Source of the DNA: Octopus vulgaris
Taxonomy: Eukaryota
Direction: 5' to 3'
DNA length: 64,000 nucleotides
Assembly: GCA_951406725.2 (NCBI GenBank)
Contig: OX597817.1
Location: forward strand, 18,786,001 to 18,850,000
The notes under the pieces are model-generated. The model worked only from the letters and a program-made list of their open reading frames with translations, ran no database searches and was not told where the DNA came from. How positions within the stretch are numbered: position 1 is the first letter of the stretch; the number at the start of each line of letters is the position of its first letter. Shown here piece by piece: positions 6,846 through 55,430 of the stretch. A program made the position numbers and the translations under genes.

Positions 6846-8199
6846 CATAATGTAACACGTCTTGTTTATTTGTATTTTTTAATGTTTATATATGCAGTTT
6901 TTTGCCACCAAATTCAAAAATCACATTCGTTTTGATGTAACATCAATAGTTATTTATTTATTCCTAATTTCATATTTGCTCGTTATATTTGTAACTTTTC
7001 ACTACAGCACTTTGTTGGTTCAATCTATTCTAATATTGTAAGGATAATTACACAACATTTAGTACTTTTCCATATATTGAAAGGTATTTAGGAAGTATAA
7101 TATTAGTCAGAACAAAAGGAAACAATAAATCTCTGCACTGTAAATGCCTTGATAACTCTTTTCTTAAGATGAGAAGTGCTTTGACGATCGAGGTTTTCTG
7201 GAGTGTATACCTTCATCTCTTCTGACTAGAGACCATATATAATCTCCCATCATAGCAGTATCCTATCGTCCTTGGTATCTTCTTTCCATAGTTGAGATGT
7301 CCTGATGAAATCTCTCACCATGCTTCTCAATGACATCACCCAAGTTTTCGGGGAAACAATCTAGGTGAGAATGCAAAAAATGAACCTGTAAGGACATACG
7401 ACAACCCATTTTCTTGAAGTTCTCAATAAGCTTTGCTACCAGCTGTTTGTAATTAGGATCCTTGTGATTTCCTAGGAATCCACGAACTACAACACGAAAT
7501 GCACACCAAGCCTCTTTTTCAAAATTTGTCATCGCTCTTTCCAGTTTCTTCGACTTTAACATTACTTTTACTTGGGGCCCAACAAACATGCCACTCTTGA
7601 TCTTAGCCTCAGATATCTTTGGAAAAATAAGAGAAATTTCTTGAAAAGTTTCTCCTCTAAAATCTAAGGCCTTCACAAACTGTTTTACCAATTCGAGTAT
7701 GATATGAAGTGGGGGTAATATGATTTTGTTGGAATCTACTAGAGGCTGTTTGAGAACATTAAACATTCCTGGCTGCAGTTCTACTCGTTGGGGTGGGGCA
7801 ATGTACTCTCTCGTACTGATCATCATCAGCTCTGCTGTCCCATAAGCAAAGGAAAGATGAATACTTTGTGTATTTCCCTTGCAAGCCAAGCAAGAACGCA
7901 AGCATCTTGAAATCACCATAAACATCCCCCTTGAACTCAGTGTAATTTATTTTGTCGAGTAGCCATCATGAAAGTAGCAGAACTTAGTAATTGGTCTGAA
8001 AGAGAAATTTAGACATACATTTAGTAGCAGAACATTATAACAATACCGAATATATAACATTGAAAGTCGACATATATTTTTTTAACTGTTGATGATACAT
8101 AAAAAATAATTTCATTTTTGGAAATAGCAGAAAAATGGATGGATAAACAATAAAAAAATACAATAAACGAATTTTTTTTTGGAAAATTGTTACGTTGTG
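6846..8199 (-). mobile_element. Chapaev3-like (CMC superfamily) DNA transposon, internally deleted
   Basis: Imperfect TIRs (cataatgtaacac at 6846, ttgttacgttgtg ending 8199) and an identical TTA on both flanks (6843-6845, 8200-8202). Contains a transposase remnant. Confidence 0.7.
7150..7975 (-). pseudogene. Chapaev3-like transposase C-terminal half (frameshifted)
   Basis: ORF 7263-7925 has LPPLHIILELVKQFVKAL, FPKISEAKIKSGMFVGPQV, GFLGNHK, MSLQVHFLHSHLDCFPENLG and HGERFHQDISTMERRYQG. An upstream frame gives GDFKMLAFLLGLQGKYTKYSSFLCLWDSRA. Confidence 0.8.
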
Positions 8200-10809: not shown

Positions 10810-10930
10810 TGTGAGAAAAAGGGAGATGTACAACTTTGTTTAACCATGTCTTTTTGACTGAAATTCATGTCACCAAAATACTGAACACTATCATTTTTTC
10901 TTTTTCTTGCTTTCTTTAATATACACACAT
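10481..10930 (+). mobile_element. Probable non-autonomous Helitron 5' part
   Basis: Starts TCTAATATAATAAATGCG...aatgtgtcacactt, like the heads at 13271 and ~13555. No 3' end identified. Confidence 0.4.
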
Positions 10931-10992
10931 TAAACTAATACATCTGCTGGTTGTTTACACACCCGTCTTCGTCTTTTGTTTTCCTGTAATTC

Positions 10993-11033
<41 letters not shown>

Positions 11034-11037
<4 letters not shown>

Positions 11038-13118
11038 ACAATAAAGGAACGGCCATAATAGGCCATTCACCCACTAGAAATAACAGCCAAAGCTTCAACC
11101 GCAAATAAAAGTTAATTCAGTAAACCAGGAGAAAATTTAAAAAACATTTACCCTGTAATTTCTTATACGATATACCGTTCCATCTGCTGATTAATGGTAA
11201 ACTAACCTGATTAAATTAAATCAAGCCAATCTTCCACAGGCCCTCAGATTCTTCAGTAAGAAATAGCCCAAGACGGAACAGATATTTTCACGAGGCATTT
11301 CCGACGTTGCCAAGTTAATATCTGACCTAAAATTTTCAAATCGTCGCACTCGCGCCAAATTTATCGGCAGCAAATAAATATAAGCCGTCGATTCCATTAC
11401 GGAATTAACCAGAAAATTCATAATTAATCAATATAGGGTGGCAAAAAAATTTTGTAGAATTCTTTTGCCACCAGCGGCCTAGTAGGAAAAAATTAAAATA
11501 GTCATAGACCATTTTTAAGTTCAACATCAACAATAAAGGAACGGCCATAATAGGCCATTCACCCACTAGAAATAACAGCCAAAGCTTCAACCGCAAATAA
11601 AAGTTAATTCAGTAAACCAGGAGAAAATTTAAAAAACATTTACCCTGTAATTTCTTATACGATATACCGTTTCATCTGCTGATTATTGGTAAACTAACCT
11701 GATTAAATTAAATCAAGCCAATCTTCCACAGGATCTCAGATTCTTCAGTAAGAAATAGCCCAAGACGGAACAGATATTTTCACGAGGCATTTCCGACGTT
11801 GCCAAGTTAATATCTGACCTAAAATTTTCAAATCGTCGCACTCGCGCCAAATTTATCGGCAGCAAATAAATATAAGCCGTCGATTCCATTACGGAATTAA
11901 CCAGAAAATTCATAATTAATCAATATAGGGTGGCAAAAAAAATTTTGTAGAATTCTTTTGCCACCAGCGGCCTAGTAGGAAAAAATTAAAATAGTCATAG
12001 ACCATTTTTAAGTTCAACATCAACAATAAAGGAACGGCCATAATAGGCCATTCACCCACTAGAAATAACAGCCAAAGCTTCAACCGCAAATAAAAGTTAA
12101 TTCAGTAAACCAGGAGAAAATTTAAAAACATTTACCCTGTAATTTCTTATACGATATACCGTTTCATCTGCTGATTAATGGTAAACTAACCTGATTAAAT
12201 TAAATCAAGCCAATCTTGAGTGCGACGATTTGAAAATTTTAGGTCAGATATTAACTTGGCAACGTCGGAAATGCCTCGTGAAAATATCTGTTCCGTCTTG
12301 GGCTATTTCTTACTGAAGAATCTGAGGGCCTGTGGAAGATTGGCTTGATTTAATTTAATCAGGTTAGTTTACCATTAATCAGCAGATGAAACGGTATATC
12401 GTATAAGAAATTACAGGGTAAATGTTTTTTAAATTTTCTCCTGGTTTACTGAATTAACTTTTATTTGCGGTTGAAGCTTTGGCTGTTATTTCTAGTGGGT
12501 GAATGGCCTATTATGGCCGTTCCTTTATTGTTGATGTTGAACTTAAAAATGGTCTATGACTATTTTAATTTTTTCCTACTAGGCCGCTGGTGGCAAAAGA
12601 ATTCTACAAAATTTTTTTTGCCACCCTATATTGATTAATTATGAATTTTCTGGTTAATTCCGTAATGGAATCGACGGCTTATATTTATTTGCTGCCGATA
12701 AATTTGGCGCGAGTGCGACGATTTGAAAATTTTAGGTCAGATATTAACTTGGCAACGTCGGAAATGCCTCGTGAAAATATCTGTTCCGTCTTGGGCTATT
12801 TCTTACTGAAGAATCTGAGGGCCTGTGGAAGATTAGCTTGATTTAATTTAATCAGGTTAGTTTACCATTAATCAGCAGATGAAACGGTATATCGTATAAG
12901 AAATTACAGGGTAAATGTTTTTTAAATTTTCTCCTGGTTTACTGAATTAACTTTTATTTGCGGTTGAAGCTTTGGCTGTTATTTCTAGTGGGTGAATGGC
13001 CTATTATGGCCGTTCCTTTATTGTTGATGTTGAACTTAAAAATGGTCTATGACTATTTTAATTTTTTCCTACTAGGCCGCTGGTGGCAAAAGAATTCTAC
13101 AAAATTTTTTTTGCCACC

Positions 13119-13125
<7 letters not shown>
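11034..13125. repeat. ~492-bp tandem array with internal inversion (~2.4 forward units 11034-12217, ~1.8 inverted units 12218-13125)
   Basis: Landmark tcaagccaatctt recurs at 11221, 11713 and 12205 (period 492). From 12218 the sequence is the reverse complement of the unit. Bounded by (TA)n at both ends. Confidence 0.97.
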
Positions 13126-17979: not shown

Positions 17980-18812
17980 GGTGTGTATGGTGAATATGGA
18001 TATGTCTGAATTACGCAAAAATAAAAATAAACTTCACGTCTCATTTTAACAGATATTTTCAGCAAAATTATATTAAAATATTTTGAAATACTAAAGAGTA
18101 CATTTAGTCAATAAAATCGCCATTCGCCTCAACCACGGCCTCCAGACGACCTCGGAATTTCCTGTAACTCGTCTGGACAGTCTCCTTGTTTAAGATGGAT
18201 AATGCTGCCATGATCCATGCCTTCTGTTCATATTTGGTGTTACAAGATTTCTTGGTTTCTCGGTCAACTGAGCCCCACACAAAACCGCTAAGGGATTGTA
18301 GTCTGGTGAGTAAGGTGGCCAGATGTTCGAGTGGTGTGGCCGCAGAAATTGTCTGACAGCCATGCCTGGGTTCTCATGTTTGTGTGGTATGGTGCAGAGT
18401 CCTGTTGGCAGACATAGGCTCGTCCAGCAGCCACCCTCTTGACCCAGAGTACTACTACCTCCTTCGGGCATTTGATGTAGTCCTCCGTGTTGAGTCTGAG
18501 ACCGTGTGCGAAGATGAATGAAGGCATAACGTCGCCATCACTAGTGATCACTCCAAAGACCATGATGTTGACTGGATGTTTGTTATCACTCTAGTTATAT
18601 GATGTCCTCAGACTGACACCGGAACACTCTGAAGTATTCGTATTGGAGCTTCCGGCACGGGTCGTTTACAAATTGCGTCATGGTGCTCTTTTTTCACAGA
18701 CGGTGCCCGCCTAAGCCTACTATACTGTGTAGTCGACAAAAAAAAAAAACAATCAATGTGCATGCACGAAAATAAATAGTATGAAGTGGCAACGATTTAC
18801 CTATTGCACCAA

Positions 18813-40613: not shown

Positions 40614-40788
40614 TTAACATGTTGAACCAGGCCAGACTTAAATACAAATACTGCATCAAAGAACGAGAAAGACTGTCACACGCTGGGCATGAATTTAGTT
40701 CAAGGGTTGATGTGAAGTTGCACTAAAGCAATCGTGGTAGGGTAAAAATCAATAATAATCCAGTTCTATATTTAATAGATGACGAATT

Positions 40789-40925
40789 ATGTACATTATT
40801 TACATTTCACGGATATTTGTCCTCGTCTTGTTTGTTGTTAATACAACGTTTCGCTTTGATATACCCTCCAGCCTTCATCAGGTGTCTTGGGGAAATTTCG
40901 AACTTGGGTTCTCATTCCTAAAGTA
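40789..40925 (-). mobile_element. Short repeat family B with hammerhead-like motif (40840-40886)
   Basis: Minus strand reads GACAC-CUGAUGA-A-GGCUG-...-UCAAAGC-GAAAC-GUU-GUAUU. Inverted copy of 41701-41837. Confidence 0.75.
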
Positions 40926-40961
40926 TTGTTCTATGTTGTTGTTGTTGTTATTATAATAATA

Positions 40962-41041
<80 letters not shown>

Positions 41042-41042
<1 letters not shown>

Positions 41043-41560
41043 CAGTACCAGGCAGTGGCTCTCATGGCTTCTGATCTTAACTGATTGGAAGTGTTATCAT
41101 TACATTGTTTTGTCTTGGTATAAAAGATACAGCAAATATTCTGCTCAATACCACAGATTTGCTTTCAGTTGTTTGATTAACCAGTTGAGCATGTCCCTTA
41201 GTGGCTGACGATATGTGCATCTCTGATCACGAGCAGAAGTAGTGGGATAGCATTAGCCATGTGTTGAGAAGGATTCTTTGGGGTTTATTATTATCTGAAA
41301 CATGGGTGTTTCGTTCAACGTCCTTAAACAACCCTTATTCAGGGACCTTTTGAGCGGGATGGGTTATCGATCTGAAAAATTCTAACTGGGCTCCATGCAA
41401 GGTATGTGCTGTTTATCTTGATATGAGATCACCATGTCGCGCACATATGGTTGTGATGCATGTGCCTGGTGTACCCTTATCAGACGGTAGTCATGATGGG
41501 TATACTGGGCTTCGTATATTTTACCCCAGTGTCACTTTGATGGCATGCTCTGCTCGCTAA
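41042..41560 (+). mobile_element. ~520-bp (AAT)n-embedded retroelement/SINE-like repeat
   Basis: Flanked by (AAT)n on both sides. Its 3' ~110 bp recurs at 9738-9855. Confidence 0.7.
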
Positions 41561-41572
41561 TCAATAATAATG

Positions 41573-41660
<88 letters not shown>

Positions 41661-41700
41661 GAAGAAGAAGAAGAAGAAGAAGAAGAATAACATCGAAAAA

Positions 41701-41837
41701 TACCTTAGGAATGAGAACTCAAGTTCGAAATTTCCCCAAGACACCTGATGAAGGCTGAATGGTATATCAGCCGAAACGGTGTTAACAACAAGCAAGACGA
41801 GGACAAATATCCGTCAAATGTACATAATGTAAATAAT
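41701..41837 (+). mobile_element. Short repeat family B with hammerhead-like motif (41740-41783)
   Basis: GACAC-CUGAUGA-A-GGCUGA-auggauua-like loop-UCAGCC-GAAAC-G-GUGUU. The core and stem II are intact; the cleavage triplet is lost by a 2-nt deletion relative to the 40789 copy. Confidence 0.75.
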
Positions 41838-47295: not shown

Positions 47296-47305
47296 AAGTG
47301 AGAGT

Positions 47306-47343
47306 GAGAGAGAGACGTGTGTATATGTTTAAAGATAGATAGA

Positions 47344-47401
<58 letters not shown>

Positions 47402-47441
47402 CATCTATCTATCTTTAAACATATACATACGTCTCTCTCTC
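47306..47441. repeat. Near-perfect palindrome centred on (TA)n
   Basis: gagagagagacgtgtgtatatgtttaaagatagatagatgt (47306-47346) versus acatctatctatctttaaacatatacatacgtctctctctc (47401-47441), one mismatch. Confidence 0.9.
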
Positions 47442-47472
47442 TCTCTATGTATATATATATATATATATATAT

Positions 47473-50220: not shown

Positions 50221-52695
50221 GGTTCCCCACTCATGGATGCTAGAAGCCCTTCAACTTGCTAAAGTTCCAGTGAGAAGTCAAAGCTATAGCTGTTACAACT
50301 TCATCGTGGGCCACTATCTTGAAATTAAAAACTGAGTGAATGCACTATCACTGATAGAATACCGTATCGCAAAAGCATATTCCGAGGGGACAGCCTCTCT
50401 GTAATGTTGTTTATACTTTCCGTGAACCCCTTGTCGTTCATGTTAAAGAAGTCTGTAGGATACGTCACTGGTTCACAAGGAAACAGAAATACCAAAATTA
50501 CACATTGTGTCTTTGTGGATGGCTTAAAACTGTATGCAAAGAATAAGCACGAGATGAAAAAGAGCCTTGACCTAGTTACATCATTCTCAAAGGATGGAGG
50601 ATTGAAATTTGGTCAGAATAACTGTTGTTATATGGCTCTGGGAAGCGGGGAAAACTATACACCAGATTAGTAACATCTCCATTAATAGTGTGACAGTTTC
50701 CCCTGTATCTAATGAGGAATGTTACAGGATACCTAGGGGTGGATGAAAATATATCTTACAGTGGCACATGTAACAAAACACTTATCACCAAACATATTAC
50801 AAACGAATAAAGAAAATTTGGATCTTTGAACTCTCTACATTCAATAAAACAGTATCCCCCAATGTGTTTGCAGTTCCAGTACCCGTGACAATATTTGGGA
50901 TGCTTGACTGGACGCTTGATGAGATCCGAGCCATTGATGTGAAAACACGAAAAATACTAACAAGCACACACAGTTTCCACATAAACAGTGATGTAGACCA
51001 CCTCTACCTAACGAAAGCAAGGCAGAAGAGGCTTAACATCGATTCAAAATGCCTTTGAATGTCGCATTATATCCCTTCGGCAACATCATTTAACCACCAA
51101 GTATCAAAGTGCATCCCATGACCAAGTTTGCATACATGAGGCTGATAACATCATCAGACTTGGAATGCAGCTCCTTTAGCAACACTCTTTGTCTTTGTCT
51201 CATAACGTAGAATACATGCGGGAGGCGCAATGGCCCAGTGGTTAGGGCAGCGGACTCGCGGTCGTAGGATCGCGGTTTCGATTCCCAGACCGGGCGTTGT
51301 GAGTGTTTATTGAGCGAAAACACCTAAAGCTCCACGATGCTCCGGCAGGGATGGTGGTGATCCCTGCTGTACTCTTTCACCACAACTTCCTCTCACTCTT
51401 ACTTCCTGTTTCTATTGTACCTGTATTTCAAGGGGCCGGCCTTGTCACTCTCTGTGTCACGCTGAATATCCCCGAGAACTACGTTAAGGGTACACGTGTC
51501 TGTGGAGTGCTCAGCCACTTGCACGTTAATTTCACGAGCAGGCTGTTCCGTTGATCGGATCAACCGGAACCCTCGTCGTCGTAACCGACGGAGTGCTTCC
51601 ATCCCAGAATACATGCCCAAAGAAATCGCACGAGTCTACCGCAACGTATCATCAGATAAAAGATGAGCCTATATGAACATAAGCCTATGAATAGATATGT
51701 TATTAGAACGCTCCGTGATGATAGTGACATCGATCATCAAAGCTGTTTATCATGGACAAATAGCCGGATTACCACCTCCCACTTTGAAGGGTATGAGTTT
51801 GCAATCCAGGAACAGGAAATATCAACCAAGTACTTGATGCACAAAAGGGACAGAGATGCAGGAAAAAGCCGTAAGATGTGACAACCGATGCAGACTTTGT
51901 GGATTTCACACTGAAGATACCACCTACACCATAAGCAGTTGTCCGAAAATGTAATCACGGTATTATCTACCGATGAGACATGTCGTTGCAGCTAGGAAAC
52001 TCTATAATAAAATCCGTCGGTTGGATAATCCCTAGGACAAAGAAATAAGAACCTACAATATAACAGAAGCCATAGCTACTAATAATAAAAAGGAATACTG
52101 GTGGAATGTTCCAGTGAATACCTCAATAAAATGTAAGCACAACAGACCTGATATAATGATTTAGGATAGAGAATAGAAACTGTGCACAGTTGTGGAATTT
52201 AGCAGTCCAGCGGATGTTAACAAAGCTCAAGATCAGTAAAAAAGAGAAAACTTATGCTGATATTTGAAAAATCTGCAGTTACTCTATCCAGATTGCAAGG
52301 TCAAGTTTATACCTGTAATTATTAGGGCCTTGGGATATGTAATACACCGCCTAAATACCAATCTTGACAAATTCTCAAAATCAGAAAGGAGAAAGTTAAT
52401 TCGAAGGCTACAGATCCAATCCACCACTGGAACTGTAAAAATCTGTAAAACTTTCCAGAAGTTTATCCTTTAAATATATATGAACATGTTTATATATGCA
52501 ACTATATGCATGAGAATACATACATGAAACATACAAGTCTGCACAGACATACATACATGCATACATACATACATGCATACAAACAAACAAACAAAATACC
52601 TTGTTGTTGATGTTGAAATTCCAATGAAGGAGCCTTAGATCTAGGTTAGAAACTGGTTCTTTCTCTACTGGCAAAGAATGTTGAAATAAACTGAT
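50221..52695 (+). mobile_element. R4/Dong-clade LINE (RT plus restriction-like endonuclease), 5'-truncated, between (TACA)n tracts
   Basis: VPHSWMLEAL, IFRGDSLSVMLFILSVNPLS, HCVFVDGLKLYAK, FAIQEQEISTK, CRLCG...C.....RH, KHNRPDI, VEFSSPAD and KFIPVIIRALG, with stops and frameshifts. Confidence 0.9.
51221..51605 (+). mobile_element. SINE S3 nested in the R4/Dong LINE
   Basis: Family S3 sequence with 11-bp TSD agaatacatgc at 51209-51219 and 51606-51616. Confidence 0.95.
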
Positions 52696-54980: not shown

Positions 54981-55430
54981 TGACAACTTTATTTCTGTTT
55001 ATTTTTCCTGTTTTCAGCTTTACGTTCATTGCTCCACTTTCTTAAAATCGCATGTTGACAACTCTATTTCTGTTTATTTTTCCTGTTTTCAGCTTTACGT
55101 TCATTGCTCCACTTTCTTAAAATCGCATGTTGACAACTCTATTTCTATTTATTTTTCCTGTTTTCAGCTTTACGTTCATTGCTCCACTTTCTTAAAATCG
55201 CATGTTGACAACTCTATTTCTGTTTATTTTTCCTGTTTTCAGCTTTACTTTCATTGCTCCACTTTCTTAAAATCGCATGTTGACAACTCTATTTCTGTTT
55301 ATTTTTCCTGTTTTCAGCTTTACTTTCATTGCTCCACTTTCTTAAAATCGCATGTTGACAACTCTATTTCTGTTTATTTTTCCTGTTTTCAGCTTTACTT
55401 TCATTGCTCCACTTTCTTAAAATCGCATGT
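54981..55430. repeat. Minisatellite, 6 x 75 bp
   Basis: Unit tgacaactctatttctgtttatttttcctgttttcagctttac(g/t)ttcattgctccactttcttaaaatcgcatgt starts at 54981, 55056, 55131, 55206, 55281 and 55356. Confidence 0.97.

Follow-up and report, generated by a model that had tools for sequence, protein, structure and literature searches.

The inverted array of the window

The window, that is, the whole stretch of 64,000 nucleotides analysed, is part of a chromosome-scale contig of the 2.8-Gb, microsatellite-rich genome of Octopus vulgaris. Between two (TA)n tracts it contains an array of 493-bp units that reverses its orientation once. A tandem-repeat search of the window detected the forward array at 11034-12217 (period 492-493, 2.4 copies, 98% matches), and an inverted array of 908 bp follows at 12218-13125. 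The features of the array are as follows.

10997-11035, no strand: left (TA)n target tract (sequence, repeat search)
11034-12217, plus strand: arm A, 2.40 units, starting at the fixed site A (unit phase 98; unit alignment)
12217-12218, no strand: inner junction, joining phases 297 and 415 without overlap or insert (unit alignment)
12218-13125, minus strand: arm B, 1.84 units; its start, on the right, is site B (phase 1; unit alignment)
13029-13125, plus strand: 'tail', the A-to-B segment, at the B end only, with two hairpins (comparison with sister families)
13126 to about 13196, no strand: right (TA)n target tract (sequence, repeat search)

The plus strand of arm A corresponds to the inferred cDNA strand and its minus strand to the RNA sense; in arm B the plus strand is the RNA sense. 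Arm B starts here at phase 1, and the commonest B start in the family is phase 484. Both hairpins of the tail, the stronger of which lies at 13082-13118, are kept, with changes, in sister families. The unit has a GC content of 0.353. No ORF of at least 100 aa lies within the array, the last 54 bp of which are entered by one stop-to-stop frame coming from the right flank, and no further copy of the unit exists elsewhere in the window.

About 11430-12217 pairs with 12336-13125 around a spacer of 118 nt. The halves of the resulting stem of about 790 bp differ by four substitutions and two one-base indels. The sequence-only reading had described a forward and then an inverted array, a sharp junction at 12217/12218, a palindrome around a spacer of about 120 bp and (TA)n at both ends, and all of this was confirmed. 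The four variant pairs that it named (at 11180, 11686, 11733-11734 and 12835) are also real, and two homopolymer length differences exist among the unit copies besides them. Judging from its sequence, the stem could possibly extrude as a cruciform or give rise to hairpin RNA.

Several other repeats occur in the window. An abundant dispersed repeat at 13265-13510 matches 76 fetched loci at up to about 84%. A young 75-bp tandem array with one open frame is found at 54981-55430 (6.0 copies, 98%), and a reverse transcriptase (RT) fragment at 50329-50670 (RVT_1, E 2.8e-6). Two frames without a credible Pfam match, at 7263-7946 and 18288-18590, are presumably transposase-like. Two further, older inverted repeats are present in 40786-41837 and 47301-47446 (87% over 167 bp and 95% over 146 bp).

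A hammerhead motif in every unit

Each unit contains a type I hammerhead motif, which lies on the complement of the strand that reads inward from the flanks. CUGANGA is followed by stem II, which carries a long insert, and then by GAAA, a stem III that is nearly palindromic and a cut triplet (GUA or GUC); stem I encloses them all. The loop II insert is 60 nt long in the family of the window (family 1), within a range of 52-60 nt. The following copies are present in the window.

11147-11272, minus strand: type I hammerhead of unit 1, core GAAA altered at 11180 (A13 to G); covariance model 44.4 bits; predicted cut 11165/11166
11639-11764, minus strand: type I hammerhead, core intact; 46.9 bits; predicted cut 11657/11658
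12131-12217, minus strand: hammerhead 3' half, truncated by the junction; 22.8 bits
12297-12422, plus strand: type I hammerhead, intact; 47.3 bits; predicted cut 12403/12404
12790-12915, plus strand: type I hammerhead, intact; 47.9 bits; predicted cut 12896/12897
12404-12896, plus strand: predicted 493-nt monomer between the two intact hammerheads (predicted release), a candidate circle

The change at 11180 presumably cripples the hammerhead of unit 1, which leaves arm A with one intact motif; arm B has two, predicted to release 12404-12896.

Three sister families with the same motif exist in the genome. Family 2 (467 bp, 2526 candidates) was found through a diverged palindrome beside one family-1 locus. 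Sequence flanking hammerhead matches yielded family 3 (483 bp, 1441 candidates) and family 4 (about 520-530 bp, 1671 candidates). Families 1-3 can be aligned over the whole unit. In the MAFFT alignment the 5' halves of families 1 and 4 were shifted by three columns, and stem pairs were hence counted from core anchors, with one copy per family. All 39 of 39 pairs are held in families 1-3, as against 12-17 of 39 in slid controls, and 9 of 13 stem positions differ on both sides across these families. With family 4 added, 50 of 52 pairs are held, the two unpaired positions lying at the base of stem II in family 4. The lineages behind this covariation are related and number three or four; they do not amount to many independent events. 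A covariance model trained on families 2 and 3 alone detected the four whole copies of the window at 44-48 bits (E 1.6e-9 to 1.2e-8), and its best unrelated match scored 16.8 bits. An Rfam scan of arm A (E up to 10) returned five weak matches, none of them a hammerhead, probably because of the loop II insert.

The core is unchanged in 144 of 147 family-1 units, and one of the three changed units carries the variant at 11180. These 3 changes in 1989 core bases are not distinguishable from the singleton rate given below. In predicted minimum-energy folds of the monomer, stems I and II form and stem III does not, so that activity may need a dimer or a protein. The unit is present in contigs of public runs guessed to be RNA; such contigs are silent on ends, strand and circles and may be DNA. 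A 472-nt contig of one such run spans the predicted cut site, as would be expected of a circle, an uncut multimer or DNA alike. A visual comparison of the block that precedes the hammerhead with sequence upstream of 12 U2 and 12 U6 matches revealed no convincing common element. Two other readings were dropped: a type III hammerhead reading of the core, once family 2 had revealed the type I register, and a Helitron-like reading (a hairpin followed by a CTAG motif), because the ends of the element fall elsewhere.

Non-LTR retrozymes of metazoans have been reported from coral, mussel and axolotl by Cervera and de la Pena (2020, PMC7229834), who proposed a cycle of cleavage, circularisation and tandem cDNA synthesis. 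The footprint in the window fits these steps. A hammerhead motif in each of a series of short non-coding units, together with low GC and no LTR layout, makes it very probable that the element is a retrozyme of this class. Like the elements described in the main texts of that paper and of Li, Clavereau and Pollet (2026, 10.64898/2026.07.22.740005), it has short tandem units with one type I hammerhead each, a GC content of 35%, no ORF and few units per locus. Its unit of 493 nt compares with 150-450 nt in the former and 51-972 nt in the latter. Penelope-type elements (PLEs) are proposed there as the helper and circRNA as the template, as inferred here. Unlike the retrozymes in these texts, the octopus element has a loop II insert of 52-60 nt and a near-palindromic stem III, and most of its insertions, placed in (TA)n, are pairs of opposed arrays whose ends are fixed at A and B. 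The words 'inverted' and 'microsatellite' do not occur in the main text of PMC7229834. Li et al. have also reported that eight of nine predicted Xenopus retrozymes failed to cleave.

Outer ends and inner junctions of a dispersed family

A genome-wide search with one unit returned 741 first-look candidates, and the 493-bp unit thus represents a dispersed young family. At least 220 matches to one unit exist, nearly all of 97-100% identity among the matches listed. The loci studied were the best 39 of the 741 candidates by match to the full unit and are therefore biased to young, long copies. One of them (L058) has its flanks in common with L057 and was dropped, leaving 38 non-duplicate loci. L057 and L058 lie 63 kb apart on C11, with the same flanks and junction and a different B-arm structure; they represent a duplicated or doubly assembled locus with differing unit number, possibly a change after insertion.

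Two opposed arms are present in 31 of the 38 loci. Among the seven loci of single orientation, one stops at an assembly gap and another (L050) has a 16-nt stub of a second arm. Read inward from the flanks, both arms present one and the same unit strand. The outer ends occupy one of two ranges of unit phase, 94-100 (A) or 482-7 (B), about 107 nt apart, and the 31 two-arm loci comprise 28 A+B pairs, two of B with another end, one of A with another end, and neither A+A nor B+B pairs. TA-like sequence lies on both flanks in 29 of the 31; where (TA)n is present on both sides, any target-site duplication is masked by it. Many other loci thus have the inverted layout and the (TA)n flanks for which the sequence-only reading had recommended a search, and its view of a recent mobile insertion of a concatemer of the rolling-circle kind gains support from the same layout at many loci. 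Its suggestion of a nascent satellite was not borne out, the longest arm in the loci studied being 9.35 units.

Ends of the same kind were found by eye in the sister families with a query anchored at B. Family 2 contains 10 A+B and two B+B loci among 27 distinct loci, and family 3 nine A+B loci and no B+B among 19. Small fold-backs, for the most part next to TA or TAA tracts, occur as well in unrelated families with Rfam-type hammerheads (L157, L164 and L173), so that the footprint is general in this genome. Left of the window array, an older repeat end at 10927-10996 precedes the (TA)n tract and is about 80% identical to 17 fetched loci. Fuller copies of this repeat have a minimal-hammerhead-like motif upstream and (TA)n at the end, and the retrozyme therefore appears to be inserted in the TA tract of an older PLE-type end.

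That the palindrome is a fold-back read chimera or an assembly artefact is scarcely credible. The junction at 12217/12218 is spanned by no listed piece of four public runs (X1, X9, X2 and X4), which is uninformative, as the contigs are short and the insertion may be polymorphic. Chimeras would not stop at two fixed unit phases in 28 of 31 loci. The joints are non-mirror, with 118-nt spacers, the arms have private differences between them, and three sister families of different ages have the same layout. It is also highly improbable that the element is a DNA fold-back transposon or MITE with long terminal inverted repeats containing tandem units. Inverted arms, no coding capacity, a TA target and the two B+B palindromes of family 2 agree with such an element, but the termini are not identical (A versus B in 28 of 31 two-arm loci), there is no family-wide centre, the centre being different at each of 29 loci, and a ribozyme with covariation lies on one strand. 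The hammerhead, the two fixed starts and the Penelope-type footprint, none of which figures in the sequence-only reading, argue for an RNA-based retrozyme. Of the earlier proposal of a 'mobile tandem or fold-back element', mobility therefore stands and the fold-back DNA element does not.

The inner junctions, unlike the outer ends, are placed at random. Their phases are uniform over the unit (KS p 0.76, 58 ends), no two of 29 loci have the same junction, and only 4 of the 58 ends lie within 10 nt of the predicted cut site, which is no enrichment. Near-palindromic junctions number 1 in 29, against 1.2 expected. Exactly walkable junctions (26 of 29) include 16 without an insert and 10 with 1-47 extra bases, some of the small inserts possibly being variants next to the joint. 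Overlaps of 1-6 nt occur in 15 of the 16 insert-free junctions, the chance expectation of at least 1 nt being 45%. When insert-bearing junctions were counted as zero overlap, the excess of at least 1 nt was not significant (p 0.14), and that of at least 2 nt had p 0.03. Two loci have nearly the same insert of 31-33 nt (unit phase 142-174) at the inner end of arm A (L039:4790-4822 and L040:5112-5142), as if the cDNA end preferentially snapped back there before being joined. Among the matches listed, contigs of runs X7 and X10 contain inversion joints at further phases; the sides of these joints are under 30 letters, and this observation is weak.

Arm A is longer in 11 of 26 loci and arm B in 15 of 26, and arm lengths are uncorrelated; neither arm is therefore a copy of the other. 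The template-switch origin considered by the sequence-only reading, a fold-back of one strand, does not fit these counts, because either arm may be the longer and the joints are not palindromic. The self-priming model of PLE inversions in Arkhipova et al. (2013, PMC3846280), which as described there predicts palindromic joints, likewise does not fit, because such joints are not enriched here.

Probable two-ended priming on one RNA template

Endonuclease-bearing PLE insertions have been described by Craig et al. (2021, PMC8557442) and Arkhipova et al. (2013, PMC3846280) as a partial tandem with an inverted, 5'-truncated copy and a tail. The octopus retrozyme resembles the insertions in these accounts in its head-to-head inversion, its extension at one end and its preference for (TA)n. 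It differs from them in having no ORF, in that both arms are multi-unit runs of one short unit, and in a tail of about 107 nt versus 30-40 nt. Frangieh et al. (2024, PMC11167929) have reported that the anole Poseidon PLE in vitro cuts and extends both strands of an AT-rich target, and that two internal start sites define the tail. The octopus footprint fits this description in its putative two-strand cutting and extension, its two internal starts and its AT-rich target. In the Poseidon experiments as described, the same start sites were used on both strands, whereas A is found at one end and B at the other here. The inverted second copy (31 of 38 loci), the tail at one end (28 of 31) and the (TA)n target (29 of 31) are all features of a Penelope-type footprint, and two-ended Penelope-type priming is a quite likely origin of the insertions.

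In L1 twin priming, one RNA is primed by two target ends, and the resulting inversion has a joint with microhomology; the position of the second priming site is variable, and the joint is close to it. Here both starts are fixed, and the joint may fall anywhere in the unit, after up to several turns.

A GIY-YIG search of the genome returned 6136 candidates, the best 150 of which were scored. The commonest family among those scored, a young one, has a 781-aa ORF with RT and C-terminal GIY-YIG domains and a linker of the CxxC type described in Neptune and Nematis; 16 such ORFs differ by 1.0%. Like the retrozyme, the family ends in (TA)n, at either a short or a long end, the two lying about 35 nt from each other. 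Long and short ends of PLEs were read by eye, and in four of five resolvable inverted insertions they lie at opposite ends. In L135 and L137 the long end belongs to the main copy and the short end to its inverted counterpart; the pattern is reversed in two other PLE families (L220 and L146), and L222 has no difference. The 781-aa family also has tandem repeats downstream of the RT ORF and a separate upstream ORF (L130:1906-2985 and L133:1768-3207), 479 aa when whole, without a credible Pfam match. No canonical hammerhead core was found in two end regions of L130 that were scanned. Searches with BLAST, the covariance model and nhmmer of 70 PLE-search and 30 hammerhead loci, a small part of the 6136 candidates, revealed no autonomous element sharing unit sequence or pLTR homology; pLTR homology is reported for 24 of 57 Xenopus families in the main text of Li et al. 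(10.64898/2026.07.22.740005). Matches that had been candidates for an autonomous partner proved to be separate small insertions of retrozyme families. With no sequence common to PLE and unit in these 100 loci, it is the footprint that points to a PLE helper.

The variants within loci bear on the template. No locus among 33 with several units mixes the two states of a common dimorphism at phase 381, as against a mean of 23.3 mixed loci and a minimum of 15 under permutation; 23 of the 33 cover both arms. At sites covered by at least two units there are 135 locus-variant pairs, 36 of them fixed, 88 singletons and 11 partial. Fixed variants span both arms in 21 of the 36 cases. Singletons account for 88 of the 99 non-fixed variants, at a rate of about 0.12%, and there is no nested sharing. 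The 11 partly shared variants, some in adjacent units and some not, are unexplained by a single pass round one monomer and call for a later conversion event, an error in polishing or now and then a multimeric template.

It is improbable that a short Penelope-type fold-back stub was inserted first and its arms then grew in place by unequal exchange, a course of satellite birth of the local-amplification kind proposed in the main text of 10.64898/2026.07.22.740005. Variants common to adjacent units of one arm in L037, L046, L061 and L063 agree with local growth. Local duplication, however, requires more than one starting unit, and both arms are multi-unit in most loci; the predominance of singletons without nested sharing also argues against it, and their low rate leaves little time.

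Arms exceed one unit in 55 of 71 cases and cross the predicted cut in 65 of 71, so that a cut linear monomer could have served as the template only if the enzyme returned to the same molecule by a jump. The main rival, although unlikely, has the same element and the same two-ended Penelope-type priming, with an uncut linear multimer from a homogeneous parent array as the template and a ribozyme that matters only occasionally. A homogeneous parent would likewise yield locus-wide variants, and the 11 partly shared variants are compatible with a multimer. In the in vitro work on the anole PLE in PMC11167929, linear RNA was used, unprocessed RNA was the dominant substrate, and ribozyme cleavage was dispensable for insertion. 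Arrays copied from uncut multimers could, however, only shrink in each round, yet arms reach 9.35 units. The parent junction is never inherited (none shared among 29 loci). A new mutation of the parent would be expected in one unit of several, but 36 variants are fixed across whole loci, and the ribozyme stems are maintained by compensatory change across diverged families. A circular RNA is thus the somewhat likelier template.

According to the circular-template reading, a copy with two intact ribozymes (here arm B) would be transcribed, and self-cleavage would release a 493-nt monomer that becomes a circle. A Penelope protein would cut both strands within (TA)n; of the two target 3' ends, one would prime at A and its partner 107 nt away at B, and each primed end would copy round the template for about 0.1-9 turns. 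The two cDNA ends would then be joined by microhomology-type end joining. Against this reading stand the tail of about 107 nt, compared with 30-40 nt in published PLE insertions and about 35 nt in the 781-aa family, the 11 of 135 partial variants, and the two B+B beside 10 A+B loci of family 2. The monomer folds without stem III, the two unpaired positions of family 4, the dispensable cleavage of the anole PLE, the Xenopus retrozymes that failed to cleave and the fruitless search for an autonomous partner in 100 loci also weigh against it. Overall, the array in the window is probably a young retrozyme inserted in a TA microsatellite by a Penelope-type RT/endonuclease, with both cut ends priming on one RNA, probably a circle.

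The retrozyme class and the PLE footprint are each already in print; their joining in this way appears to be new. A literature search, which included few subscription papers and covered main texts, found no paper on fold-back retrozyme arrays. Figure S9 of PMC7229834, which presents a model, and repeat libraries could also be relevant to this novelty. The words 'retrozyme' and 'ribozyme' are absent from the main text of the 2026 octopus repeat annotation (PMC13282606).

The return of animal retrozymes to DNA has so far only been proposed, with a circRNA template and a PLE helper, and the origin of the PLE inverted copy and tail is described in the literature as undefined. Hundreds of near-identical insertions with both signatures allow starts per end, joints and arm haplotypes to be counted. 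The chances are even that each insertion is a one-step record of two Penelope RTs that were primed by the two ends of one break and copied the same circular RNA, rolling-circle fashion, from two dedicated starts. In that case, obligatory two-site, two-ended priming would account for the inverted copy and the 'tail' in every Penelope insertion, and the octopus arrays would be direct genomic evidence that animal retrozymes move via their circles.
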